From NCBI GenBank assembly GCA_034113565.1, contig JAXEXE010000031.1:14885-78884 (forward strand): a stretch of 64,000 nucleotides of DNA, read 5' to 3'. The DNA is from Faecousia sp. GTDB taxonomy: Bacteria; Bacillota; Clostridia; Oscillospirales; Oscillospiraceae. The position numbers were made by a program, and so were the translations under genes. Positions 47,005 to 62,503 of this stretch are shown in pieces (the stretch's first letter is position 1; each line of letters opens with the position of its first letter). Below the pieces are notes generated by a model. The model was not told the origin of the DNA. It saw only the letters and a list, made by a program, of their open reading frames with translations, and did not search any database.

Positions 47005-47876
47005 TCCCCCTCTTTTAACTGGCGGGCAAGGGCTTTGCCCAGCATTTCCGCGTCCGCCGCGCTGCCGCGAATGCTGCCCTTGCGCTGAATACGTTCGTCA
47101 GCACTGACGTAGAAGCCTGTCAGCGTCAGCAGCGTTCTTTCCACCACGGCGTGGGCCGCGACCGGAGAACTGCATCCGCCGTTCAGCGCACGCACGAAGG
47201 CGCGCTCGGCCCTTGCGCAGCAGGCAGATTCTTTATCCTGCACAAGCCGCAGGCAGTCCGTGTTCATCCCCTTTCGGGTCTGTACCGCCAAAATGCCCTG
47301 TCCGGCGGCAGGCAGAATTTCCTCCACCGAAAAATAACGGCTGATCCGCTCTTCCAGTCCCAGCCGCTTGAGGCCTGCAGCCGCCAGCACCAGAGCAGAA
47401 AACTGCCCCGCTTCCAGTTTGGCAAGGCGGGTCTGGACATTGCCCCGAACCGGTTCGATCGCCATGTCCGGGAACAATTTCCTTAACTGTAATTGTCTGC
47501 GCCGGGACGAACAGCCAATGGGCTTTGAGCGGTCAATTTCCGTCGTGCCTTCCGGCAGCACCAGCACATCCCGGGGGTCTTCCCGGCTGGAAAAGGCCGC
47601 CAGCGGCAAATCCTCCGGCACCTCCATAGGCATATCTTTCAGAGAATGGACGGTAAAATCCACCTTTTCCTCCCGGAGGGCCTGATCCAATTCCCGCACA
47701 AACAGGCCCTTCCCGCCGATTTTGTCCAGCGTTTTGTCAAGTATTTTATCGCCGGTGGTCTTCATGGTCACCAACTCCAGCTCTGCCGCCGGTTCCGCCT
47801 TTGCGATTGCTTCCATCACCATTCGGCTCTGAATGACCGCCAGACGGCTTTCCCGGCTTCCGATACGCAGTTTCAT
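46995..47876 (-). CDS. hemC: Porphobilinogen deaminase
   Basis: IGSRESRLA, KTTGDK, GGKGLFVREL, VHSLKD, RGNVQTRL, GGCSSP. Confidence 0.95.
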   Translation of the reverse strand: MKLRIGSRESRLAVIQSRMVMEAIAKAEPAAELELVTMKTTGDKILDKTLDKIGGKGLFVRELDQALREEKVDFTVHSLKDMPMEVPEDLPLAAFSSREDPRDVLVLPEGTTEIDRSKPIGCSSRRRQLQLRKLFPDMAIEPVRGNVQTRLAKLEAGQFSALVLAAAGLKRLGLEERISRYFSVEEILPAAGQGILAVQTRKGMNTDCLRLVQDKESACCARAERAFVRALNGGCSSPVAAHAVVERTLLTLTGFYVSADERIQRKGSIRGSAADAEMLGKALARQLKEGECQ

Positions 47877-49291
47877 TCCAATTCCTCCAGCGCCCGGCGA
47901 ATAGCCTTGGCGGCCCGGGCGGTTCTGTGGTGGTCTTTTCCGCCGGACACCACTCCGGCAATCAGGTTCTCCCCGGTACAGACCGCCGGAAAATAGAAGG
48001 TGCATTCTGACTCGCAATCCGCAACGGAAACGGGGATACCAAGTTCTCCCGCATCCATGCCGACCTGATGATTCACACTGCGGCTGTCAGTGGCGGCAAT
48101 CGCCAGACAGGCTCCCTCCAAATCCCCGGAGGTATACGCCCGCTGCTTCCATAGCAGCCCCTCCGGACTGCATTTCAGCTCCGGAGCCACGACTTCGATT
48201 TCACAGCCAAACAGGCGCAAGGTTGCTATTCTACGGGCGGCGATGGTTCCGCCGCCCACCAAAACCACCTTTTTCCCGGTCAAATCCACAAACAGCGGGA
48301 ATCTGGGTGATTTCTGTGCAATTTCCTGCCGCCGCTGCCACTGGGAAAAGCGTTCCTGCTCCTGCGCCGCAATGGCGCGCATGGCTTCCAGCTCTTCCGG
48401 GCTTCCGGGGCCTGCTGATCCAAGAGAGTCTGTATCGTACAGTGTTATCCGTTGACCGCACTCTGGATCAATGTCCCGGGGTACTGCCAAATCTACGGCC
48501 ACCTTCGGTGGATTCTGAACCTGCCGCAATTGCTGGGCAGTCAAGGTATAGTGGGGACTGGTGGTTGCGGAAACCAGTGCATCCATATTTTCCAGCGCCG
48601 CTGCCCGGTCTTCGTAGTTGACCGTTTTGCACCCGGCAGGAACCAGCGTTTCCCCATGACGATAGGTTCGCAGAGTCACGCTGACGCTGGCCCCAGCCTC
48701 CTGCAAAAGCTGTGCCGCAAGGCGGCCCATCTGCCCGTTTCCGATGACCAGAATCTTCTTCCCTTCCAGCGTACCCAACTCCCGCAGAAGAATGTCCCGG
48801 CAGCGGGTTCCCATGGAGGGGCTGCTCCTGCTGACGGACACTTCCGTTCTCGCCCGCTTGCCCGCCGTCACCGCGCCGCGAAACAGAGCGGACAGTGTGG
48901 GATCGGCGGTTTTTTCTTTCTGGGCCAGTTCCATGGCTTTGCGCACCTGGGTGATGATCTGGTCTTCCCCCAGAATCTGAGAGTGCAAGCCGCAGGTCAC
49001 CTCCATCAGGTGCCGGGCGGCATCCACACCACAGCGGGTGGTGAAATAGTCCTCCATCTCCCCTTCCGGCACGCCTGCACCACGGCACAGGAGTCGCCAC
49101 GGCGTTTCCGCGCTGCCGCTGATATACAGCTCCGTCCGGTTGCAGGTGGAGAGCAGCACGCACCCTTCCACGCCGGGCCGGTTATGAAGCCAGTGCAGGA
49201 GTTCTTCCGCCTGAGATGTGGAAAAGGCCAGTCGCTGACGCTGATTCAGGGGGGTCCTTTGATAATCCAGGCCTGACATCATGAGCGTCAT
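47873..49291 (-). CDS. hemA: Glutamyl-tRNA reductase fused to a precorrin-2 dehydrogenase (SirC/CysG-N) domain
   Basis: LSTCNRTE, GEDQIITQV, IGNGQMG, DLAVPRDID, then FPLFVDL.GKKVVLVGGG.IAARR. Start codon uncertain. Confidence 0.88.
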   Translation of the reverse strand: MTLMMSGLDYQRTPLNQRQRLAFSTSQAEELLHWLHNRPGVEGCVLLSTCNRTELYISGSAETPWRLLCRGAGVPEGEMEDYFTTRCGVDAARHLMEVTCGLHSQILGEDQIITQVRKAMELAQKEKTADPTLSALFRGAVTAGKRARTEVSVSRSSPSMGTRCRDILLRELGTLEGKKILVIGNGQMGRLAAQLLQEAGASVSVTLRTYRHGETLVPAGCKTVNYEDRAAALENMDALVSATTSPHYTLTAQQLRQVQNPPKVAVDLAVPRDIDPECGQRITLYDTDSLGSAGPGSPEELEAMRAIAAQEQERFSQWQRRQEIAQKSPRFPLFVDLTGKKVVLVGGGTIAARRIATLRLFGCEIEVVAPELKCSPEGLLWKQRAYTSGDLEGACLAIAATDSRSVNHQVGMDAGELGIPVSVADCESECTFYFPAVCTGENLIAGVVSGGKDHHRTARAAKAIRRALEELE

Positions 49292-50751
49292 TTCCCGCCC
49301 TCCTTCACAATGACCAGCGAAAAATAACCGGAGGGTTCTTCCAAATCCGCAAAGTGGGGGTAAACGCGCTCATTTTCCATGCTGCAATTTTCAACCATAG
49401 ACGCGCCCTCCAGAAGCCCCCGGTCTGCCAGAGCCTGCTGCAATTCCAGAATGGAACGGCCCGCCTTCATGAAGACCTTATTGCCGGGAACGTCCATCAG
49501 TTCCTCCTGATCGTGGGACGCCGGAATAATCAGCAGCGGCTCCGCGCCGAGACAGAGGGACTGGTTCAGCCGTGCCGCCGCCGCGCAGAAGGAAGGGATG
49601 CCCGGCACTACCTCCACCGCGTAGCCCCGGCGCAGCACCTTCTGGTGAATATACATATACGTCGAGTAGATGGCAGGATCGCCCAGCGTCAGGAAGGCCA
49701 CCTGCTTCCCCTGATCCAGCAGGCCGCAGATGGTGTCCGCCGCCTGCTCGTGAGCCGCATCCATGGCGGTCTTATCCCGCACCATGGGGGTTTTTACGAA
49801 CTGAATCTGCTTGTCCTTCAGATAGTCCATCGCAATATTCAGGGCCACCTTGTCCCCGCTGCTGGCGTCCGGCACGATGACTACGTCCGCTTCCCGCAGA
49901 ACCCGGACAGCCTTCACCGTCAGCAGCTCCGGGTCACCGGGGCCAACACCCACACCCCAGAGCTTTCCGCCTGTCGCCAGCGCTTCCACCGCACTGCGGC
50001 AGTGCTCCACGAACAGCGCCCGGATTGCGGGACACTCGCCCAGTCCCTGCAGGATGCAGCGCACGGGATACCCAGCCTTTTTCAACTGCTCCGCCCAGGA
50101 ATCCTCATCCCCGGACATATCGTTTCTGGCATGATCTCCCGCCACCAGCATAAAGGGGGCCAGCATCAGGCGGCGGATCTCCGGACGTTTGGCAAGCTGC
50201 CGTTCCACACTTTCCAGCGTGGGATAGCCCTCCACCGTGGCAAGATACACCCGGTCACAGGAGCTTTGCAGCATATGCTCCATCTGCGCGTAGGCGGAAT
50301 TGGCAAAGTGGGTGGTTCCGTGACCCATGAGTACCAGCGCTTCATCCTCCGCCAGCGGCGGCAGCCAGTTCAGCAGGGCCTGCGCCACGGCGGCGTAGTC
50401 TTCCTCCCCGTGAAGCAAAGGCATCCCCACGGAAACCTTCATCCGCAGACGGTACGGTTCCAGCTGGGACAGCATTTTTTCATATTCCTCGCCGTGCATG
50501 ACGTGGGTGGACTGGACGGCAATGTGAGTGAAGCCTTCCTCCTCCAGCCGCTGCATGGCCTGAGCAACATTTTCAATCTCCACCCCGTCCCGCTCTTTTA
50601 GTTTCCGAATGATCATTCCGCTGGTAAAGGCACGGCGAACCTCCCAGTCCGGGAAGGCTTCCGCCAGCGCCTGCTCCGTAGCGGCAATGGTCTTGCGCAG
50701 GGTATCGGGGTAAGACGTTCCAAAGGACACTGCCAAAATTGCTTTTTTCAT
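49288..50751 (-). CDS. cbiK: Anaerobic cobaltochelatase CbiK fused to C20-methyltransferase CbiL
   Basis: SFGTSY, LMGHGT, PFMLVAGDHARND, then GVGVGPGDPELLTVKA, LTLGDP.IYST, VPGIPS. Confidence 0.9.
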   Translation of the reverse strand: MKKAILAVSFGTSYPDTLRKTIAATEQALAEAFPDWEVRRAFTSGMIIRKLKERDGVEIENVAQAMQRLEEEGFTHIAVQSTHVMHGEEYEKMLSQLEPYRLRMKVSVGMPLLHGEEDYAAVAQALLNWLPPLAEDEALVLMGHGTTHFANSAYAQMEHMLQSSCDRVYLATVEGYPTLESVERQLAKRPEIRRLMLAPFMLVAGDHARNDMSGDEDSWAEQLKKAGYPVRCILQGLGECPAIRALFVEHCRSAVEALATGGKLWGVGVGPGDPELLTVKAVRVLREADVVIVPDASSGDKVALNIAMDYLKDKQIQFVKTPMVRDKTAMDAAHEQAADTICGLLDQGKQVAFLTLGDPAIYSTYMYIHQKVLRRGYAVEVVPGIPSFCAAAARLNQSLCLGAEPLLIIPASHDQEELMDVPGNKVFMKAGRSILELQQALADRGLLEGASMVENCSMENERVYPHFADLEEPSGYFSLVIVKEGGK

Positions 50752-50796
50752 TGCATTCTCTCCTATGCGCGCATCCGCGTTTTTTTGCGGCTGTCC

Positions 50797-50822
50797 AAAA
50801 AAGGACAGCCCAACGGCTGCCC
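50797..50822 (-). terminator. Expression-platform terminator of the cobalamin riboswitch
   Basis: gggcagcc-gttg-ggctgtcc followed by U6 on the minus strand. Confidence 0.7.
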
Positions 50823-50879
50823 GGCGAAAGGACGGTTCGTCCCATTCCCGGAGACTGATCACCGCAGCCCGGAAAAAGT

Positions 50880-52056: not shown

Positions 52057-53280
52057 TTAAGCCAAAACCGCCTTGTGGAAGACCTTTTTCCCCTTGCGAA
52101 TTTTCACGCCTTCTTTCAGCATTTCTTCCGTCACAGAGAACTGGGCCGAGGGAACCTTCTCGTCGTTGACCAGCACGCCGCCCTGCTCTACCAGTTGGCG
52201 CGCCTGCTTGTTGGAGGGAGCCAGACCACAGGCAACCATCAGATTCAGAATGCCGATTCTGCCGTCGGTGAGCTTGTCGGCGGTAATCTCGGTGGTGGGC
52301 ATATTGGCGTCGTCACCGCCGCCCACGAACAAAGCCTTGGATGCGGCCTTTGCCTTGTCCGCCTCTTCCTCGCCGTGCACCAGCTTGGTCAGCTCGTAAG
52401 CGAGGATTTCCTTGGCCTCGTTCAGCTTGGCGTCCTTCCAGTCGGACATGGCGTCGATTTCCTCCAGGGGCAGGAAGGTCAGCATCCGCAGGCACTTAAG
52501 CACGTCCGCGTCATCCACATTCCGCCAGTACTGGAAGAATTCAAAGGGAGAGGTCTTGTTGGGGTCCAGCCAGACAGCGCCCTTGGCGGTCTTGCCCATC
52601 TTCTTGCCCTCGGAATTGAGAAGCAGGGTGATGGTCATGGCGTGGGCATCCTTGCCCAGCTTGCGGCGGATCAGCTCGGTGCCGCCCAGCATATTGCTCC
52701 ACTGGTCGTTGCCGCCGAACTGCATGTTGCAGCCGTAGGTCTGGAACAGGTGGTAGAAATCGTAGGACTGCATAATCATGTAGTTGAATTCCAGGAAGGA
52801 AAGGCCCTTTTCCATGCGCTGCTTGTAGCACTCGGCCCGGAGCATATTGTTCACGGAGAAGCAGGCGCCTACCTCCCGCAGAACGTCCACATAGTTAAGG
52901 TCCAGCAGCCAGTCGGCGTTGTTGACCATCATCGCCTTGCCCTCGCCGAACTCGATAAACCGCTCCATCTGCTTTTTGAAGCAGTTGCAGTTGTGCTGGA
53001 TGGTCTCCCGGGTCATCATGGAGCGCATATCCGTACGGCCGGAGGGGTCGCCGATCATGGCAGTGCCGCCGCCGATCAGGGCGATGGGGCGGTTACCCGC
53101 CATTTGCAGCCGCTTCATCAGGCACAGGGCCATGAAGTGGCCCACATGGAGGGAATCGGCAGTGGGATCAAAGCCAATGTAGAAGGTGGCCTTGCCGTTG
53201 TCGATCAGGTCGCGGATCTCTTCTTCGTTGGTCACCTGGGCAATCAGGCCCCGGGCAACCAGTTCATCATACAGTTTCAT
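52057..53280 (-). CDS. tyrS: Tyrosine--tRNA ligase
   Basis: [30 protein letters not shown]-terminal S4 domain. Confidence 0.97.
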
Positions 53281-53297: not shown

Positions 53298-54230
53298 TTA
53301 TTGCGCTGCGTCCCGGCAGATGTAGGTAATGATCGCCGCACGCAGAAGATTGACGTTGGTTCGTTCCAGAATGGTATCCTTATTTGTGTGGATTCTTCCC
53401 AGATACAGGGTCTTTCCCCGCTTTTTCAGCGCGCAGATGCCGACGCCCCAGGGAAAATTCGCCTGATCGGAGGGATAGAAGGAAAAGCCCTTCTCCCGGA
53501 GCAAAATGCTCTTTTTCCCGAAATATCCGCAGGCTTTGTACAGGGAGGTCAGGCGCTTTCTGTCCTTTTTCAGCTTCTTCGTGGGAAACAGCAGCAGATT
53601 GTCTCCATCGCCCACACAGTCCAGATTCAGCACCATTTGCCGGTCGGTCCGGGCTTTATGGGCTTTTCGGTAGGAAGCCGAACCAATCAGGCCCGCTTCC
53701 TCTAGATCAAACAGCACAAAGCAGACACGCTTTTGCTGGTTTTCCGGCATGCTTTTGGCGATTTCCAGCAGGGTAATTACGCCGGAGGTATTGTCGTTGG
53801 CGTTGCTGGGGTTCGCCGGGCCAATCAGCATCAGGGCAAGGAGAATCCAGACCAGAAGATACCCGACCAACACGCCGGCGAAAACGCTGCCGGTGAGCAA
53901 ACCCACCGCAAGGCCGCCAAGAATACACACGCCCAGAATCAGCAGCATCAGCGCAAGCTGCCAGAGCAGAAACAGCCAAAAATTGCAGGGTGTAAGGAAA
54001 TTGGGGATGGGCAGCCGGGCGCAGGTGTCGTAGTGGGCCGTCACCAGATAGTCTGCCTGCTCGGGGTTTCCGAGTATCAGGTTCTGACTGCCAAAGCTTC
54101 CCTTCTCCACCCGGCTTTCATATCCAATGGAAGCGGCATATGCCTGCACCGCGTCCCGAAAGGCCTGCTTCTGCCGCTTCGTCTTCCGCAGGGGAAAGGC
54201 TGTCAGAACATCCATAGGCTTTTCAAGCAT
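53298..54230 (-). CDS. M28 family metallopeptidase with two internal TM segments
   Basis: [35 protein letters not shown] zinc-ligand motifs. Confidence 0.85.
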
Positions 54231-54600
54231 GGCCTTCCTCCCCTGCCAGCAGCTCGGCCTGCTTCTTTTTGCTGAAGGAATGCAGAATCAGACCATATGC
54301 TTCGTCCAACATATCCCGCAGAACTGTGTCCGGCACCTCGCCGTCCGCCCGGATGGAATTCCAGTGGGCCTTATTCATATAGTACCCCGGCAGAACATCG
54401 GGATACTGCCGGCGGTAGAAATCTCCGTCCGCCGGTTCCAGCTTCAGGGTGATATAGTAGGGCTTTCCCGCTTCATCCAGGCAGACGGCGGCAAACAGCT
54501 TGCCCCCAATCTGATAGCGGTACCAGCCCCACTCTTCCTTGAAATTCTTCTGTACCGCCGGCTTTTGAAGCAAATATTCATCAATCCACGGATATTTCAT
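54223..54600 (-). CDS. MmcQ/YjbR family protein
   Basis: YQIGGKLFA, ITLKLEP, VLPGYYMNKAHWNSI, MLDEAYGLI. Confidence 0.87.
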   Translation of the reverse strand: MKYPWIDEYLLQKPAVQKNFKEEWGWYRYQIGGKLFAAVCLDEAGKPYYITLKLEPADGDFYRRQYPDVLPGYYMNKAHWNSIRADGEVPDTVLRDMLDEAYGLILHSFSKKKQAELLAGEEGHA

Positions 54601-54619
54601 CGCATTCTCTCCTTTTCCA

Positions 54620-54880
54620 TGCAAAAACGCCCTCTATCCCAATGGGATAGAGGGCGCAGTGATGCGCGGTACCACCTCTGATTCGGCATTTTCTCGCAAA
54701 AATGCCCTCACGGCGTCAAATAACGCCATTCGCGGTATCGGGCGAACCCGTCTTTCCCTACTGTGCCCTTCAGGAAAGCCACTCAGGGAGGTATTTGGGC
54801 GCGTTTTCCCGCCGCCTCGCACCAGCCGGCAGCTCTCTGGGGGAAAGGTAAGCGCTTACTTCATCCCTTCACTGTGTTTA
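54620..54880 (-). promoter_or_regulatory. T-box riboswitch (Tyr)
   Basis: Promoter TTGACA-N17-TAGGAT (54888-54916), AG-box/GGTG, UAC specifier at 54791-54793, T-box AATCAGAGGTGGTACCGCG (54665-54683), 13-bp terminator at 54628-54656. Confidence 0.92.
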
Positions 54881-54930: not shown

Positions 54931-56577
54931 TTATCGGAGCATTTCCTCCGCGCTCTTCAGCGTCGTCTCCGTAATATTCGTGCCGCCGATGATACGGGCC
55001 AGCTCCCGTTTCCGGCCCTCCCTGTCCAAGGGTATGACAGAAGTAAATGTACGTCCGTCCCGCTCAGACTTGGTAATCAGCAGATGTGTGTCCGCAAGGG
55101 CCGCCAACTGGGGCAGGTGGGTCACGCAGAGTACCTGCTTGTGAGCGGCGACGCTTCTCAGCTTCTCCGCCACCTTCTGGGCCGCCCTGCCGGACACGCC
55201 GGTATCCACCTCGTCAAAAATCAGGGTGCCAATCTGGTCCTTTTCCGCCAGTACATTTTTCATTGCCAGCATAATGCGGGCCAGCTCACCGCCGGAAGCA
55301 ACCTTGCTCAGAGGCTTCAATGCTTCGCCGGCATTGGCGGACATATAGAAGGCCACAGCGTCCGCGCCGTTGGCAGTCAGTTCCGTTTCCGTAAATTCAC
55401 AGGAGAACTGCACCCGGGGCATATCCAGCTGGGCAAGCTCCGTCAGAATCCGTGCCGACATGGTTTTTGCCGTTTCCTGTCGGTTTTCCCGCAAAGCCTT
55501 TGCCGCATTCCAGGCCGCCTTTTCCGCCTTTTTCAGGTTCTTTTTCAGGCGCTCTAGGTGGTCGTCCGCAAATTCGATTTCATCCAGTTCCGCCTTTGCC
55601 TTTTCGAGATAGGCAAGAATGTCCTCACAGGTCGTTCCGTATTTCCGGCGCAGCTTATGAATCACGTCCAGTCGGGACTCGATCTGCTCCAGCTCGTCGG
55701 CGGAATAGCTCAGGCTGTCCCGGGCGTCCCGGACCTCCTCCGCCGCGTCCTGCACCTGATACATAAGGTCGGATACCCGATCATGAAGCTCCGAAAAGGT
55801 GTCGCTGAACTTCGCCAGCCTTGCAAGGGCGTATTCCGCCTGAGCCAGCAGCCCTGCCGCGCCGTCGGATTCATCGCCGCCGTAGAGACATTCCACAGCG
55901 GTTTCCATACCGTTACTCAGCTTCTCCGCGTTCTGGAGCACCTTGCGGCGTTCTTCCAGAACCTCGTCCTCTCCGGCCTCCAGTTCCGCCTTCTCAATTT
56001 CGGCAATCTGATATTTCAGCGTCTCCATACGGCGGAGCTTTTCGCCTTCGTCCATGGTGAGCGCGTTGATTTCCCGGCGAAGCTTGGCAACCGCCTCGTA
56101 TTTTTCGCTGTAACCCTGACGCAGGGCGGCATTATCCGCAAAGCTGTCCAGAAAGGTCAGATGGTTTTCCTCGTCAAACAGGGCGGCGGAATCGTGCTGG
56201 CCGTGGATGTTGATGAGCTGAATGCCCAGCTTACGCAGAATGGTCACGTTGACTAAACTGCCGTTGACCCGGCAGATGTTCTTGCCGTCCAGATGAATCT
56301 CCCGGGAAATCACGGTTTCCGGGTCGTACTCCACACCGTTCTCGGCAAACCACGCAAGCTCCGGTACGTCCGTAAACACCGCCCGGACGGAGGCCCGCTC
56401 GGTGCCGGTACGAATCATGTCCCGGTAGGCCCGTTCGCCCAAAATAGCGGAGATGGCGTCGATCACAATGGATTTGCCGGCGCCGGTTTCGCCGGTCAGC
56501 ACGTTAAAGCCCCGGTCAAAAGATATGTCCGCGCTCTCAATGACCGCGATATTTTCGATATGCAGCAAACTCAGCAC
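54931..56577 (-). CDS. recN: DNA repair protein RecN
   Basis: LTGETGAGKS, IHGQHD, ASGGELAR, IFDEVDTGVSG, VTHLPQLA. Confidence 0.96.
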   Translation of the reverse strand: MLSLLHIENIAVIESADISFDRGFNVLTGETGAGKSIVIDAISAILGERAYRDMIRTGTERASVRAVFTDVPELAWFAENGVEYDPETVISREIHLDGKNICRVNGSLVNVTILRKLGIQLINIHGQHDSAALFDEENHLTFLDSFADNAALRQGYSEKYEAVAKLRREINALTMDEGEKLRRMETLKYQIAEIEKAELEAGEDEVLEERRKVLQNAEKLSNGMETAVECLYGGDESDGAAGLLAQAEYALARLAKFSDTFSELHDRVSDLMYQVQDAAEEVRDARDSLSYSADELEQIESRLDVIHKLRRKYGTTCEDILAYLEKAKAELDEIEFADDHLERLKKNLKKAEKAAWNAAKALRENRQETAKTMSARILTELAQLDMPRVQFSCEFTETELTANGADAVAFYMSANAGEALKPLSKVASGGELARIMLAMKNVLAEKDQIGTLIFDEVDTGVSGRAAQKVAEKLRSVAAHKQVLCVTHLPQLAALADTHLLITKSERDGRTFTSVIPLDREGRKRELARIIGGTNITETTLKSAEEMLR

Positions 56578-56595: not shown

Positions 56596-57048
56596 TCAGC
56601 TCAGCAGATTCTTGATTTCCCCGCAGAAGGCCGCGGCGGCATTGGTATCGCGCATGACGATAAACACGGTGTCATCGCCGGCGATACTGCCCAGCACCAC
56701 GCTGCGGCTCATGGTGTCCAGCGCCGAAGCGGCGGCATTGGCAAGGCCGGGCAGGGTGTGAATGACAATGATGTTCTGGGCGTAGTCAAAGCTGGTGACA
56801 CACTCCCGGAAAATGGTATTGAGTCGTCCCGTGAAGGTGCCGGGCACCTCTCTTGCCGCGGCGGTATAGTGATAGGTGCCGAAGCTGGTCAGCTCCTTGA
56901 TAATGCGCAGTTCCTTAATGTCCCGGGAAATGGTTGCCTGGGTGCTGTTAAAGCCGGCTTCCCGCAATGCGTCCAGCAGCTGCTCCTGGGTCTCCACATT
57001 GGTGGTGGAGATGATCTCCATGATCTTTGCCTGTCGTTTCGATTTCAA
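56596..57048 (-). CDS. argR: Arginine repressor
   Basis: TQEQL, TQATISRDIKEL, TLPGLA, GSIAGDDT. Confidence 0.93.
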   Translation of the reverse strand: MKSKRQAKIMEIISTTNVETQEQLLDALREAGFNSTQATISRDIKELRIIKELTSFGTYHYTAAAREVPGTFTGRLNTIFRECVTSFDYAQNIIVIHTLPGLANAAASALDTMSRSVVLGSIAGDDTVFIVMRDTNAAAAFCGEIKNLLS

Positions 57049-57064: not shown

Positions 57065-57925
57065 CTACCTGTTGAATTTTGAGCTTACCACATCGTAAAA
57101 ACTGCGGTCCTTCAGCCGGACCAGCCGAGTTTCCAGATGGGATTTCTTGATGGTCGCCACATCGCCCATATTCATCCGAATCGCCCTGCCGCCGTCCACG
57201 GACAGGTAGGCATTGCGCCGGGCGTTCAGAATCTGTTCCACGCTGACAATGCGCTTATCCGACGCCACGATACAGCGGCTTCCGATCTCATGGGCGCAGA
57301 TCGGCGTAATGATGATATTTTTCGCCTCCGGCTCCACAATGGGGCCGCCGGCGGAATAGCTGTAGGCCGTGGAACCGGTGGGCGTGGAAATAATTACGCC
57401 GTCGCCGCCGAACTCCATGGCTTTCACGCCGTCGCATTTGACGCACAGGTGTACAATGCGGGCAACCGCGCCCTTCGTGACCACCACGTCATTCAGACAG
57501 ATGTCGTGGAACAGAATGTCCCGGTCCCGCTGAACGGTCACGTCCAGCATCATGCGGCTGTCAAGGGAATACTCCCCCCGGGCCACCTGCGTCAGCTTAT
57601 CCAGTTCCGTGCTCTCCAGCTCCGCCATAAAGCCCATGGTTCCGATATTGACCCCCAGAATGGGGATGCCCTTCCGGGTCGCCGCCTTCGCCATGTGCAG
57701 AATGGTGCCGTCGCCGCCGAAGCAGATCACCATTTCCGCGTTGGGCAGCTCCCGGTCCAGCCGGGAAAAGCGCAGATCCTTGGGCAGCTCGTAGGAACGC
57801 TCCACCTCAAAGGGCAGGCACAGGCGGGTGCTGATGCCCGCGTCCTTCAAAATGCGCATGGCTTCCCGCACCGTCTGGAAATTCTTGTCCCGGTAGGGAT
57901 TGGGAGTAAGGATCACATTTTTCAC
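57065..57925 (-). CDS. nadK: NAD+ kinase
   Basis: GGDGTIL, GVNIGTMGF, LND, GDGVIISTPTGSTAYSYSAGGP. Confidence 0.95.
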   Translation of the reverse strand: MKNVILTPNPYRDKNFQTVREAMRILKDAGISTRLCLPFEVERSYELPKDLRFSRLDRELPNAEMVICFGGDGTILHMAKAATRKGIPILGVNIGTMGFMAELESTELDKLTQVARGEYSLDSRMMLDVTVQRDRDILFHDICLNDVVVTKGAVARIVHLCVKCDGVKAMEFGGDGVIISTPTGSTAYSYSAGGPIVEPEAKNIIITPICAHEIGSRCIVASDKRIVSVEQILNARRNAYLSVDGGRAIRMNMGDVATIKKSHLETRLVRLKDRSFYDVVSSKFNR

Positions 57926-57928
57926 CGG

Positions 57929-58738
57929 TTACTCCCCCTTATCCAGCGCGGCATGGGCCTGTTCCACCACGTCCGCGGTGTCAGGGCAGATGCCCTCTGC
58001 CGCATCCAGGCTCAGGTGCGCCAAAAATTCAATGTTGCCCTCCGGCCCCTTGACGGGGGAGAAGGTCAGGCCGAGGATTTGAAATTGCAGCTCTCTGGCG
58101 AGCGCCACGAAATTGTCCAGCACGTCCTTATGGGTACTTTTTTCCCGGACGACGCCTTTTTTCCCCACTTTTTCCTTGCCCGCCTCAAACTGGGGCTTAA
58201 TCAGGCACAAAACCTGACCTGTGGGCTTCAACAGGGCCTTGATGGCAGGCAGCACGATTTTCAGGGAAATAAAGCTGACATCAATGACGGACAAGTCCAG
58301 CGGCTCCCCCAGCTGCTCCGGGGTGACGTAACGGATATTCGTCCGCTCCATGACCACCACCCGGGGGTCGCTGCGAATCTTCCAGTCCAGCTGACCGTAG
58401 CCCACGTCAATGGCAAAGACTTTTTTCGCGCCCTGCTGAAGAAGACAATCCGTAAAGCCGCCGGTGGACGCGCCGGAATCGCTGCACACATAGCCCACCG
58501 GCTTCACGCCGAAATCCCGCAGTGCCTTTTCCAGTTTCAGGCCGCCCCGGCTGACGTAGGGACAGACCGCCCCCCGAACCTCCAGCTCCACAGTTTCCTC
58601 ATAAGCCACACCGGGCTTATCCGCCTTCTGTCCGTTCACATAGACCAGACCGCTCATGATGATGGCCTGGGCCTTGGAACGGGTGTCCGCGTAGCCCTGC
58701 TCGGTGAGCAGGACATCCAGTCTCTTTTTTACCTTCAC
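57929..58738 (-). CDS. tlyA: TlyA family rRNA methyltransferase
   Basis: S4 domain RLDVLL, YVSRGGLKL, GASTGGFTD, IDVSFISL, LIKPQFEA. Confidence 0.93.
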   Translation of the reverse strand: MKVKKRLDVLLTEQGYADTRSKAQAIIMSGLVYVNGQKADKPGVAYEETVELEVRGAVCPYVSRGGLKLEKALRDFGVKPVGYVCSDSGASTGGFTDCLLQQGAKKVFAIDVGYGQLDWKIRSDPRVVVMERTNIRYVTPEQLGEPLDLSVIDVSFISLKIVLPAIKALLKPTGQVLCLIKPQFEAGKEKVGKKGVVREKSTHKDVLDNFVALARELQFQILGLTFSPVKGPEGNIEFLAHLSLDAAEGICPDTADVVEQAHAALDKGE

Positions 58739-60606
58739 CGGGCAAGCACCTCCCTGACATGCGCGGCAATGGATGCGGCATCCAGCCCGCAGCGCTCATA
58801 CAGTTCCTTCAAAGAACCGTGGGGCACAAAATCCCGTCCCAGATCGATGCCGTCTGCCCGGCAGTTCGGGCACAGCTTCGCCAGATCCCAGGCCACAGCC
58901 TCACGAATGCCGGAGCCAGCCGCCGTTTCTTCCACGACAACCGCATGGCTGATCGACTGTAAGTAGGCAGCAACCTGCATTGATGGCAGGGGGCAGACGC
59001 TCAAAAGCCGCAAAACCGTGGCTTCAATCCCCTGTTTTGCCAGTTCTTCCGCCGCGTCCAGAACTGTTTGCAGCGTAGAACCATAGGTAATCAGCGCCAC
59101 ATCGCCGCCGGTGCGGTGGCATTTTACCATCGGGCCTTCCAGTCCCTTCCAATCACAGGCGGTATAGCTGCCCTCAGAGCCTCTGGGGTAGCGGATGGCG
59201 ATGGGGCCATCATAATCCTCCACCGCCCAGCGAAGCATCTGCCGCTGCTCAGACAGACTCGCCGGATTCAAAATCCGCATTCCCGGAATCAGGCGCAGGA
59301 AGCCCACATCAAATACGCCGTGATGCGTGGGGCCGTCGTCGCCCACCAGACCGGCCCGGTCAATGGCCAGCACAACGTGCAGATGCAGCAGCCCGATGTC
59401 CTGCAGGATCTGGTCAAACCCCCGCTGGAGGAAGGTGGAGTAAATCGCCACCACCGGCACCATTCCCTGCTTGGCAAGTCCGCCAGCCATGGACACAGCG
59501 TGTTCCTCCGCGATGCCTACGTCGAAGGTTCGATTTGGGAACCGGTTCTGGAATTCCAGCAGGCCGGTGCCGCCGGGCATCGCCGCGGTAATGGCGCAGA
59601 CCTTTTCGTTGTTCTCCGCCAGCAAAATCATGGTTTCTCCAAAGGAATCGGAGTAAGTCGTAACCTTGGCCCCCAGCTTTTTGCCGGTCACGGGGTCAAA
59701 TTTGCCGATACCGTGGAATTTGGCGGGGTCCGCCTCCGCGAAGGGATAGCCCTTGCCCTTTTTCGTCACCACATGAACCACTACCGGCTCCCGCAGTTCC
59801 TTTGCCGCCGTAAGCAGAGAAATGAGATTGGGCAGGTCGTGCCCGTCCGCCGGCCCCAGATAGGTAAAGCCCATGTTTTCAAAAATCGTAGCGGGCAGCA
59901 GCAGCCGCTTCAGCTTATTTTTGATATGGCTGCTGAAAGCGTAGATTCTGTCGCCGCCGGGAAGGGCCTTCACCACCTTGCGGTAGGTCCGCTTGGCGTC
60001 CAGATAATTGTCACTGGAGCGCAGCCGGGACAGGTGGCTGGACAGGCCGCCCACATTTCTGCCAATGGACATTTTATTGTCGTTGACAATGATGACCATG
60101 GGTTCGCCGCTGACGGCGGCATCGTTCAGACCCTCGTAGGCCATGCCGCCGGTGAGGGCGCCGTCGCCGATCACGGCAACCACATCATAATTCTCATGCA
60201 GCAGCGTTCTTGCCCGGGCCATGCCCAGTGCGATAGACACAGAGCTGGAAGCGTGGCCCGCGACAAAAGCGTCTGTGCCGCTCTCCTCCGGCTTGGGGAA
60301 GCCGGAAATACCGCCATACTGCCGAAGATGCGCAAAGCCCGCCCCGCGGCCTGTCAGCAGCTTATGCACATAAGACTGGTGACCGACGTCGAATATCAGG
60401 CGGTCAGTATTCGTATCAAATACGGTTTCGATGGCGACGCTCAGTTCCACCACGCCTAAGTTCCCTGCCAGGTGTCCGCCGGTTTTGGCGACACTGGAAA
60501 TGAGGAACTGACGAATCTCGTCACAAAGCTGGCTGCGCTGACCGTCATCCAGGTTCACAAGATCCTCATGACCGTTTATTCTCTGTAAAATGTCCACATC
60601 TGACAC
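58735..60606 (-). CDS. dxs: 1-deoxy-D-xylulose-5-phosphate synthase
   Basis: GGHLAGNLG, DVGHQSY, GHASSS, IGDGALTGGMAYE, DVGIAEEHA, GDDGPTHHG. Confidence 0.96.
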   Translation of the reverse strand: MSDVDILQRINGHEDLVNLDDGQRSQLCDEIRQFLISSVAKTGGHLAGNLGVVELSVAIETVFDTNTDRLIFDVGHQSYVHKLLTGRGAGFAHLRQYGGISGFPKPEESGTDAFVAGHASSSVSIALGMARARTLLHENYDVVAVIGDGALTGGMAYEGLNDAAVSGEPMVIIVNDNKMSIGRNVGGLSSHLSRLRSSDNYLDAKRTYRKVVKALPGGDRIYAFSSHIKNKLKRLLLPATIFENMGFTYLGPADGHDLPNLISLLTAAKELREPVVVHVVTKKGKGYPFAEADPAKFHGIGKFDPVTGKKLGAKVTTYSDSFGETMILLAENNEKVCAITAAMPGGTGLLEFQNRFPNRTFDVGIAEEHAVSMAGGLAKQGMVPVVAIYSTFLQRGFDQILQDIGLLHLHVVLAIDRAGLVGDDGPTHHGVFDVGFLRLIPGMRILNPASLSEQRQMLRWAVEDYDGPIAIRYPRGSEGSYTACDWKGLEGPMVKCHRTGGDVALITYGSTLQTVLDAAEELAKQGIEATVLRLLSVCPLPSMQVAAYLQSISHAVVVEETAAGSGIREAVAWDLAKLCPNCRADGIDLGRDFVPHGSLKELYERCGLDAASIAAHVREVLAR

Positions 60607-60609
60607 GAC

Positions 60610-61191
60610 CTAACGTATTGATTTCTTTTTTTTGAACCGGTTCAGCGTATGCAGAACCCGGCCCACCAAATGCACGATCTGCGTGCAGGAATTGACCGCG
60701 ATGGTCTTGCCGATGGCCTTTCCGCCCACCGTCAGTCCCGCCACCAGAGCGGACATTGCCAGACTCACCGCCCGGGGCCAGCCAAGGTCCACATGGGTCA
60801 GAATCAAGGCAGCGATGGTTGCCGAGGCGCTGCCGGAAACCACGCCGCAGATATCGCCCACCACGTCATTGCAGATGGAGCTGACCCGCTCCGCGTTGCG
60901 CAGCAGCCGAATGGCCTCCTGAGCGCCGGGCACCTTCCGGGCCGCCATGGAGTGAAAGGGCTTTTCGCTGGCGGTTGCCACCGCCATGCCGATAATGTCG
61001 AAGATGATTCCTAAAAAAACGATGCCCAGCAGAATCGCGAACGCTGCCAAAAGTCCGCTGCGCGCCATGACCTCATCGGAGATCAGGCTAATCATGCCGG
61101 AAACAACTAAGGTGACGAAGAATACGGTGACGACCCAGCGGATCGTCCGGGAACGTTCCTTTTTGGAAGCGTCCGAATGGGTTTTTGCCAC
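60610..61191 (-). CDS. oapA: OLE-associated protein A (membrane protein)
   Basis: GIIFDIIG.A..A.EKPFHSMA, RNAE.V..ICNDVVGDICG.VSG match OapA as recalled. Lies directly downstream of the OLE-like RNA and upstream of dxs. GTG start with RBS AAAGGAG. Confidence 0.85.
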   Translation of the reverse strand: MAKTHSDASKKERSRTIRWVVTVFFVTLVVSGMISLISDEVMARSGLLAAFAILLGIVFLGIIFDIIGMAVATASEKPFHSMAARKVPGAQEAIRLLRNAERVSSICNDVVGDICGVVSGSASATIAALILTHVDLGWPRAVSLAMSALVAGLTVGGKAIGKTIAVNSCTQIVHLVGRVLHTLNRFKKKKSIR

Positions 61192-61223
61192 GAACAATTC
61201 TCCTTTTGAGAATAATAAAAGGT

Positions 61224-61836
61224 GACGGCAGCAGGCAGGATAAATCTTACGGCTTAGGTCGGGTTGTTTTTCACCGGTGGGAACCTGCCGTTGCCGCACA
61301 GGCCGTTTCCATTTGATCCCTCCGCCCAAGTGTCGCCATGATAATGGGTACCCGATTGCCACTGAGTCCGTACTGCAATCCCCTGCCTGCCCTTTTCAGA
61401 CAGCCTAGGTGTTTTCCACAGCGGAATGTTCCGCAATCTTAGCCTCTTTTGCAAGCATGGTTTCCGGGAGCGATAGTCGAGCCGCCGTGGCCACAGCGGC
61501 ATCCGGCCTGGTCTCCCTTCCCCGCATGTTCACTTCAAGGCAGGCTACGCTGCACGCAGCACACGATTCTGTGCACCGCCTTGCAGGTTCATACCTGATT
61601 CGTACGCGATCGGACCCCTCCCGGGGCTCTACCCGTCGTCGCACAAGGTTCAAGTCTCCACGGAAACCGGGTCGTATGCTCCATGCCATTGGAGCGCGCC
61701 CTGGATCCTTAACCCCCAGCATCCACCCAAAACTGGGCGTAATAAGCAGACACCAGGGACTTCATCGATGTGCCCTTCAAAGGATTTTTAGGCCCTTCCT
61801 GGAAAGCGGTCACTCCGACTAGGATACTGCACCGTC
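61224..61836 (-). ncRNA. ole: OLE (ornate, large, extremophilic) RNA
   Basis: ~613 nt with no credible ORF. The 5' and 3' ends pair (gacg-gcagta/tgctgc-cgtc), many internal hairpins are present, and the ole-oapA-dxs-tlyA-nadK-argR-recN order is canonical. Confidence 0.87.
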
Positions 61837-61843
61837 AAATTTT

Positions 61844-61872
61844 ATTTTAGCATACTATTTCCGAATATACAA
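61844..61872 (-). promoter_or_regulatory. SigA promoter of ole
   Basis: TTGTAT-N17-TAAAAT with an extended TG, predicting a start near 61837, at the 5' arm of the closing stem. Confidence 0.75.
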
Positions 61873-61897
61873 GTATTTATTTACTATTTGTATATTC

Positions 61898-62377
61898 TTA
61901 CAGCAAATCCAGATGGTTTACAAACCAGTCCTCTACAATGTCCCGGTGAGTTACGGCAATTTCGATGTTCGGGATTTCCTCCCGGGTGAAAAAGCGCAGC
62001 TCCTTGGACTCGCTGCTGATGCGCATTTGCGGCACTTCCGGCAGGTCAAGGCCGTAGACCACAATCACCATGCGCCAAATGCTGCCATCCCGGAAGGCGG
62101 CGATGCGGCCCGGGTTGTCGTACACAGCCAGCTTGTGAAACCGCTCTTTGGGAATCCGCAGGCCCAGCTCTTCGTAGGTTTCCCGGACAATGGCTTCCAG
62201 ACCGGTTTCCGTTTTTTTACAGCCGCCGCCGATGAGTCCCCAGATGTCGGAGTCCCGGCGCTTTTCCAGCAGCAGCTTTCCCTGACAGGTAATGATGGCG
62301 TTGGCGCCCAGGTGGGCGGGCATGGTGGTTTTCGGCGCGTCCTTGGGGTCGCAGTTATAAAATGTTACGATTGCCAT
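61898..62377 (-). CDS. NUDIX hydrolase
   Basis: Nudix box GGGCKKTETGLEAIVRETYEELG. RBS GGGAGG. Confidence 0.88.
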   Translation of the reverse strand: MAIVTFYNCDPKDAPKTTMPAHLGANAIITCQGKLLLEKRRDSDIWGLIGGGCKKTETGLEAIVRETYEELGLRIPKERFHKLAVYDNPGRIAAFRDGSIWRMVIVVYGLDLPEVPQMRISSESKELRFFTREEIPNIEIAVTHRDIVEDWFVNHLDLL

Positions 62378-62402
62378 ATGGATTCCTCCCATTGCGTGAA
62401 AT

Positions 62403-62503
62403 AATGCGAAATGCAGATGGTATATCCCTCAGAAACAGAGAATCGTATATTTCAATTTGTCCGCAAAGCGGACACCACAATTTTTCATTTTGCATTCTGC
62501 ATT
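62403..62503. repeat. ~100-bp palindromic element with 7-nt periodic arms
   Basis: Left arm aatgcga-aatgcag-atgg, right arm cca-caatttt-tcatttt-gcattct-gcatt, internal hairpin tgtccgc-aaa-gcggaca. Confidence 0.5.

Follow-up and report, generated by a model that had tools for sequence, protein, structure and literature searches.

The locus studied here lies on the minus strand of the window, i.e., the whole 64,000-nt stretch of DNA that was analyzed. It comprises a promoter, a structured RNA, the gene of a 193-aa membrane protein and a cluster of five further genes, listed here from upstream to downstream.

61844..61872, minus strand: ole promoter, with TTGTAT at 61872-61867, a 17-nt spacer and the extended -10 element TGcTAAAAT at 61852-61844; predicted start near G61836
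61224..61836, minus strand: OLE RNA, ~613 nt from the first to the last base of helix P1; with flanks, the Rfam match covers 61209-61851
61832..61836, minus strand: 5' strand of P1, GACGG, pairing with CCGUC at 61224-61228
61224..61228, minus strand: 3' strand of P1, CCGUC, to which RNA 3' ends map
60610..61191, minus strand: oapA, 193 aa, GTG start at 61191, Shine-Dalgarno sequence AAGGAG at 61205-61200
60844-60873, minus strand: CNDVVGDICG within oapA, residues 107-116, with DxxxD at D109 and D113
58735..60606, minus strand: dxs, 1-deoxy-D-xylulose-5-phosphate synthase (TIGR00204, 675.9 bits)
57929..58738, minus strand: tlyA, rRNA 2'-O-methyltransferase (TIGR00478, 276.5 bits)
57065..57925, minus strand: nadK, NAD kinase (PF20143 and PF01513)
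56596..57048, minus strand: argR, arginine repressor (TIGR01529, 132.2 bits)
54931..56577, minus strand: recN-like SMC-family ATPase (PF02463), end of the conserved cluster

An Rfam scan of the whole window assigned the RNA to the OLE family (RF01071) with 415.6 bits (E 1.2e-118), against a curated threshold of 50 bits. The match spans model positions 1-616 of 616 and is not truncated, no part of the model being absent. Three Rfam matches in the window exceeded their curated thresholds, and OLE scored by far the highest. The preliminary description of this DNA had proposed an OLE RNA in an ‘intergenic’ gap and had named the OLE covariance model as one way to check it; the comparison was run, and the full-length match on the minus strand bears the proposal out. 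The description had also reported a ~613-nt region whose ends pair, and indeed GACGG (61836-61832) and CCGUC (61228-61224) enclose 613 nt. The copy in the window is the only one in the 3.03-Mb draft genome.

The OapA protein and the gene neighborhood

The GTG codon of the 60610-61191 reading frame follows the end of P1 by 32 nt, in agreement with the earlier statement that a membrane-protein gene with the OapA motif CNDVVGDICG lies ~30 nt downstream of the RNA. The DxxxD within this motif is the distinctive hallmark of OapA (PMC11332333), and in Halalkalibacterium halodurans its two aspartates (D100, D104) are the target of the D100A/D104A ‘PM1’ mutant. The family is large, with 7,963 significant matches among 90%-identity clusters and 1,166 clusters at 50% identity. 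The residues without any variation in 48 diverse homologues are D65, D109, G112, D113, G120, K158 and K162, and the motif region has the consensus CNDVVGDICGI.

The 193-aa protein has no match in Pfam or NCBIfam, neither of which holds a model for the family, and a profile of the 48 homologues gave no sequence match in the PDB even at E ≤ 10. An AlphaFold2 model built from the 48-member alignment (pLDDT 93.8) is all-helical, and its top six PDB fold matches are all CNNM membrane domains, including MtCorB (7m1t, 7m1u) and CorC (7cfg, 7cff), with probabilities of 0.95-1.0 and TM-scores up to 0.61 on the target. The link between OapA and CNNM proteins came from fold comparison only, and the CNNM-like predicted fold reproduces the published similarity of OapA to CorB. 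The gene at 60610-61191 is oapA, as identified by DxxxD, the CNNM-like predicted fold and the adjacency to OLE in 20/20 related loci, independently of an alignment with H. halodurans OapA. Like the latter, it encodes a small, predicted all-helical membrane protein after ole, with a CNNM-like fold and DxxxD (D109/D113 here; D100/D104 in H. halodurans).

The reading frames called in 61209-61851, and a 250-aa version of oapA extended to 61362, overlap the RNA, and the N-termini of homologues lend them no support; the earlier judgment that these frames are spurious was correct. In the annotation, an ncRNA feature and the 193-aa oapA should replace the ORFs in 61209-61851 and the long oapA.

Downstream of oapA, the TIGR models confirm the order oapA-dxs-tlyA that had been predicted, and dxs, tlyA, nadK, argR and recN constitute the classic ole neighborhood. 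The last of these is presumably recN, a name taken from its position after argR. Upstream of ole, a NUDIX hydrolase gene and dinB were found, and no ispA.

Further downstream, two other regulatory RNAs were noted. A T-box leader (RF00230, 54647-54881, minus strand, 120.7 bits) lies directly after recN and precedes genes for a YjbR-like protein (54223-54624), an M28 peptidase (53298-54230) and tyrS (52057-53280); it is presumably of the tyrosine type and controls this unusual three-gene unit. A cobalamin riboswitch (RF00174, 50870-51042, minus strand, 106.3 bits) is followed by genes for a fused CbiK cobalt-chelatase/tetrapyrrole-methylase (49288-50862) and a glutamyl-tRNA reductase/siroheme-synthase-like protein (47873-49291).

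RNA structure, covariation and the protein-binding sites

Related loci were collected as those encoding homologues of the downstream protein, one genome per species, and the first 20 with a full upstream flank were scanned. All of them (20/20) have OLE at full length (402-455 bits), which lies directly upstream of the OapA homologue and stops just short of its gene. The closest relatives are uncultured Oscillospiraceae and Faecousia bins from the guts of human, pig, ruminant, rabbit and chicken. The host had been described as a probable gut anaerobe, with which these gut genome bins agree, and it falls within the defining host range of OLE (Bacillota, anaerobic or extremophilic).

The 20 relatives and the window copy were aligned (21 sequences), and the Rfam structure was projected on the alignment together with helix P1, which has no annotation in the Rfam structure line, giving 158 pairs. 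Standard pairs occupy 90.8% of the cells, compared with 41-46% when the partners were slid by 1-3 columns. Double-sided changes occur at 71 of the 158 pairs, and none of 500 shuffles reached the observed covariation score. For P1 itself, pairing holds throughout the 21 sequences, and double changes were counted at three of the five base pairs (e.g., AU to GC and CG to UA). Four elements of the folded RNA deserve separate description.

61759..61777, minus strand: J4a/5 block AAGGGCACAUCGAUGAAGU, its letters matching the Rfam consensus; with GUUAAGG (61713-61707), the published OapC k-turn site
61612..61628, minus strand: 17-nt hairpin extension beyond the Rfam consensus, from the insert columns of the Rfam alignment
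61489..61492, minus strand: palindromic GGCC in the L9.3 hairpin loop (UGGCCA), from the Rfam alignment
61325..61348, minus strand: hairpin P13, at which OapB binds in H. halodurans, with the GNRA loop GCGA kept at 61336-61333

The two k-turn strands flanking P5, AAGGGCACAUCGAUGAAGU and GUUAAGG, are both identical to the consensus and form a putative OapC site; in the published system, the J4a/5 block and the GUUAAGG strand make up a k-turn bound by OapC (PMC9723947). In the published OLE dimer, the palindromic loop of L9.3 serves as the kissing-loop bridge (PMC12286853). One relative (L033) carries the alternative palindrome GUAC at this position, so that GGCC in the window and GUAC in L033 follow the pattern published for an intermolecular kissing loop. 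The 17-nt hairpin extension has equal length in 20/20 relatives, and its stem covaries. The departures from the Rfam consensus, i.e., the 17-nt longer hairpin and the enlarged P13 bulge, are clade-typical.

OLE has been reported in 2,822 Bacillota genomes by a GTDB-wide survey, whose authors define a ‘full-length’ class by at least 390 bits with their own model; the 415.6 bits of the window copy fall in this range, a comparison that is approximate given the different models. With such a score, and with peculiarities common to many relatives, the copy does not merit the label ‘divergent variant’ that it had been given. Oscillospiraceae names were looked for in the supplement of PMC11332333, with no match.

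Compared with the OLE RNAs of H. halodurans and Clostridium acetobutylicum, the window copy is alike in the match to the whole model, the k-turn strands, GGCC in L9.3 and the GNRA loops of P13 and P14.1. Shared as well are the adjoining oapA followed by dxs-tlyA-nadK-argR-recN, high abundance and an anaerobic Bacillota host. The differences are a promoter of its own immediately before the RNA, a preceding NUDIX gene in place of ispA, 17 additional nucleotides in the hairpin, a P13 bulge of 5-6 nt where theirs has 1 nt, and a host that lives as a mesophilic commensal in the gut and is no extremophile, as is already known for many OLE hosts. Gut bacteria with reduced genomes have OLE ‘variant 1’ (TANB77) and ‘variant 2’ (RF39), which resemble the window copy in their gut host and altered OapB site. 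The stems shortened in, or missing from, these variants are retained in the window copy, whose genome also keeps OapB-like and OapC-like genes. All defining features of OLE that can be read from sequence are present except the single-nucleotide bulge of P13.

In place of this canonical bulge, P13 of the window has a bulge or internal loop of 5-6 nt. The difference stems from a 3-nt insertion which, among the 21 sequences, is common to the window, L006, L029 and L033 only, while other relatives, e.g., L037 and L038, have the canonical P13 of 5 bp, 1-nt bulge, 3 bp and GNRA loop. The single-nucleotide bulge is also missing from the published variant OLE RNAs and is therefore not a requirement for membership in the family. 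It is, however, required for OapB binding in H. halodurans, which makes OapB binding doubtful here.

The preliminary description had suggested a search for oapB and oapC elsewhere, and a candidate for each was found in the genome. The OapB-like (YbzG) gene (C128:30479-30769, 96 aa) was detected by scanning all six frames for the GRD motif; the Pfam KOW model, run on the genome, matched NusG and L24 and not this gene. It lies between map and infA, which we take to be the position of ybzG in B. subtilis. The best PDB match of the protein is 7k9b_A, ‘OLE-associated protein B’ (E 6.1e-5, residues 12-88), and it keeps GRD (the Gly-Arg loop) and the His that are RNA contacts in the solved OapB.

The OapC-like (YbxF) gene (C1:6529-6810) is the only PF01248 (L7Ae-family) match in the genome and is located directly upstream of rpsL-rpsG-fusA-tuf. 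Its best PDB match is B. subtilis YbxF (3v7e, 1.7e-16), and H. halodurans BH2414 (3on1), which is presumably of the YlxQ type, reaches only 1.6e-3; the far better match to YbxF assigns the gene to the OapC type and not to the YlxQ type. Two membrane-protein-like ORFs (359 and 485 aa; C1:7042-9590, minus strand) are situated between rpoC and ybxF-rpsL and break the usual rpoC-ybxF-rpsL order.

The altered P13 raises the possibility of a working OLE particle minus the OapB clamp. P13 would have been remodeled in this subclade, and the YbzG-type protein would no longer bind and would be kept for other cellular roles. The insertion shared by the four loci, which turns the single bulge into 5-6 nt, reduces the stability of the hairpin to values from -4.5 to 0 kcal/mol, H. 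halodurans OapB needs the single bulge, and OapB is known from many OLE-negative genomes, with ~40% of OLE hosts lacking it. On the other hand, the GNRA loop and the lower stem of P13 are retained, and the OapB-like protein retains its Gly-Arg and His contact residues. On balance, we regard such a particle as conceivable but rather unlikely, and only tentatively suggest, from sequence comparison, that OapB docking at P13 may have been lost in the Faecousia-like subclade; sister lineages have the canonical P13, and an OapB-like gene is still present in the genome. Should binding indeed be lost, the gut OLE RNAs of these close relatives would form a natural pair with and without OapB, informative on what OapB contributes to the particle.

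Promoter and expression of the OLE RNA

The region had been said to begin where a SigA promoter predicts, and TTGTAT, the 17-nt spacer and TGcTAAAAT do place the start near G61836. The conserved promoter block CTTGTATATTC...TGnTAnnAT is shared by 21/21 loci and located 7-9 nt ahead of P1. A generic promoter scan did not return the ole promoter, since its -35 element matches at only 3/6 positions.

Across the 21 loci, CTTGTATATTC around the -35 element (61861-61873 on the minus strand of the window; loci L006-L038) is far better conserved than its flanks, and it takes the palindromic form TTGAATATTCAA in some of them. An interpretation as a regulon operator (e.g., an ArgR box) was considered and rejected. 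The genome contains CTTGTATATTC at just four sites, which follow no pattern, and other promoters likewise combine a TTGTAT-type -35 element with an extended -10, so that CTTGTATATTC is read as plain promoter sequence; it may also be the site of a dedicated regulator.

The OLE sequence of the window was traced in public sequencing runs, which include many gut metatranscriptomes. In four of these, the profile is box-shaped, with almost nothing upstream of ~61825, very high coverage at 61225-61824 and little or none across oapA and dxs. Run X4 has a contig covering 61237-61795 with one mismatch at a depth of 806 and a dxs-oapA contig reaching 61265 at a depth of 16.3, i.e., the OLE RNA exceeds the downstream mRNA of the same strain ~50x. 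This figure is semi-quantitative, as the depths are those of contigs made by an assembler, in which reads of related species are pooled over conserved blocks. Sequencing adapters are joined directly at 61227 (Nextera, X1) and 61229 (TruSeq, X11), and loose ends occur at 61224-61226; many molecules thus end at the 3' strand of P1. At the other side, the high-depth contigs reach 61805-61813, and coverage extends to 61824 at most, short of 61836, probably owing to a variable segment at 61805-61824 that breaks the contigs.

Many ‘joints’ were seen in the contig layout. They do not reflect splicing but chimeric contigs of conserved OLE blocks from different species, and disappear at 98% likeness. 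Runs X2 and X8, labeled as marine and sediment metatranscriptomes, contain 81-87% of the sampled words of the OLE of this gut organism, which suggests faecal input, mislabeling or very close relatives outside the gut.

A generic terminator scan found no terminator-like site in 60400-62500, and one continuous transcript contig spans part of OLE together with oapA and dxs. Part of the transcription thus continues past OLE, and with no intrinsic terminator between OLE and oapA the structured region could be imagined as a cis-acting leader (a 5' UTR or riboswitch-like element) of the oapA-dxs-tlyA operon and not as a free-standing RNA. We consider this very improbable, given the ~50-fold excess over the downstream message, the sharp boundaries of the RNA, the adapter-joined 3' ends at P1 and the published standing of the OLE family as an established trans-acting ribonucleoprotein RNA. 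That the copy is a decaying, non-functional relic, as the 13 of the 158 model pairs that are non-canonical in the window sequence might suggest, is practically ruled out by expression and covariation, with a full-length match, strong compensatory changes across the clade, a conserved promoter, very high expression and an intact oapA whose identical protein occurs on 87 contigs.

The locus is thus read as ole-oapA of a gut Oscillospiraceae (Faecousia-like) bacterium, with a probability of about 0.96; E-value, covariation and expression leave no room for a chance match. It is an already known system in its standard arrangement.

OLE and CNNM-type exporters in Oscillospiraceae

A search of the whole genome for CNNM proteins (PF01595) gave no match at E ≤ 0.01, its own OapA included, and OapA is accordingly not filed as MpfA. 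The distribution of both systems was surveyed in 81 Oscillospiraceae genomes (G000-G080), about one per genus. OLE is patchy and occurs in 17 of the 81. Strong CNNM (MpfA-type) matches were detected in 2 of these 17 genomes, compared with 57 of the 64 that lack OLE (Fisher p = 2.3e-9); the two genomes with both OLE and an MpfA-type gene are G022 and G057. In nine OLE-positive genomes, a weak, sub-threshold PF01595 match falls on the gene adjoining OLE, i.e., OapA itself. An anticorrelation between OLE/OapA and MpfA, as well as their remote homology, has been published for Bacillota as a whole, and the split between the genomes and the weak CNNM matches on OapA repeat both within one family. 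The window genome, with OLE and no CNNM gene, agrees with the published anticorrelation.

OapA shares its predicted membrane-domain fold with the MpfA/CorB/CorC exporters, and the mutually exclusive phyletic patterns of the two in Oscillospiraceae fit an overlapping function. It differs from these exporters by lacking the CBS and CorC_HlyC domains, by having DxxxD and by staying below the PF01595 cut-off. Genome G057, which has OLE together with a strong MpfA gene, belongs to the genus of the window genome; the two measure 1.65 Mb and 3.03 Mb, respectively, both being at least 97.9% complete.

The mechanism that we adopt is the published one of a membrane ribonucleoprotein. Behind its dedicated extended -10 promoter, the locus produces a discrete OLE RNA of ~600 nt, with part of the transcription continuing into oapA and dxs. 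At this locus, the excess of OLE would result from 3' trimming back to P1 and from the stability of the folded RNA, the two factors that account for OLE accumulation in H. halodurans. For the further steps, H. halodurans and C. acetobutylicum serve as the model. Dimerization of two OLE molecules would proceed partly via the palindromic GGCC loop, and the dimer would dock on dimers of OapA, a four-helix membrane protein with DxxxD. The YbxF-type OapC would bind the k-turn, and the YbzG-type OapB may bind P13. The resulting membrane particle would help against stress, chiefly that caused by excess Mg2+, cold, alcohols or poor carbon sources, and would overlap in function with the MpfA/CNNM Mg2+ exporters that are absent from this genome. 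Membrane localization, dimerization and the stress phenotypes are borrowed from other species and would apply here by analogy.

Together, the public gut metatranscriptomes show that OLE is one of this organism's very abundant transcripts and that its 3' ends lie at P1. The sharp exclusion between OLE/OapA and MpfA makes Oscillospiraceae a convenient family for testing whether the OLE particle and the CNNM Mg2+ exporters can substitute for each other.
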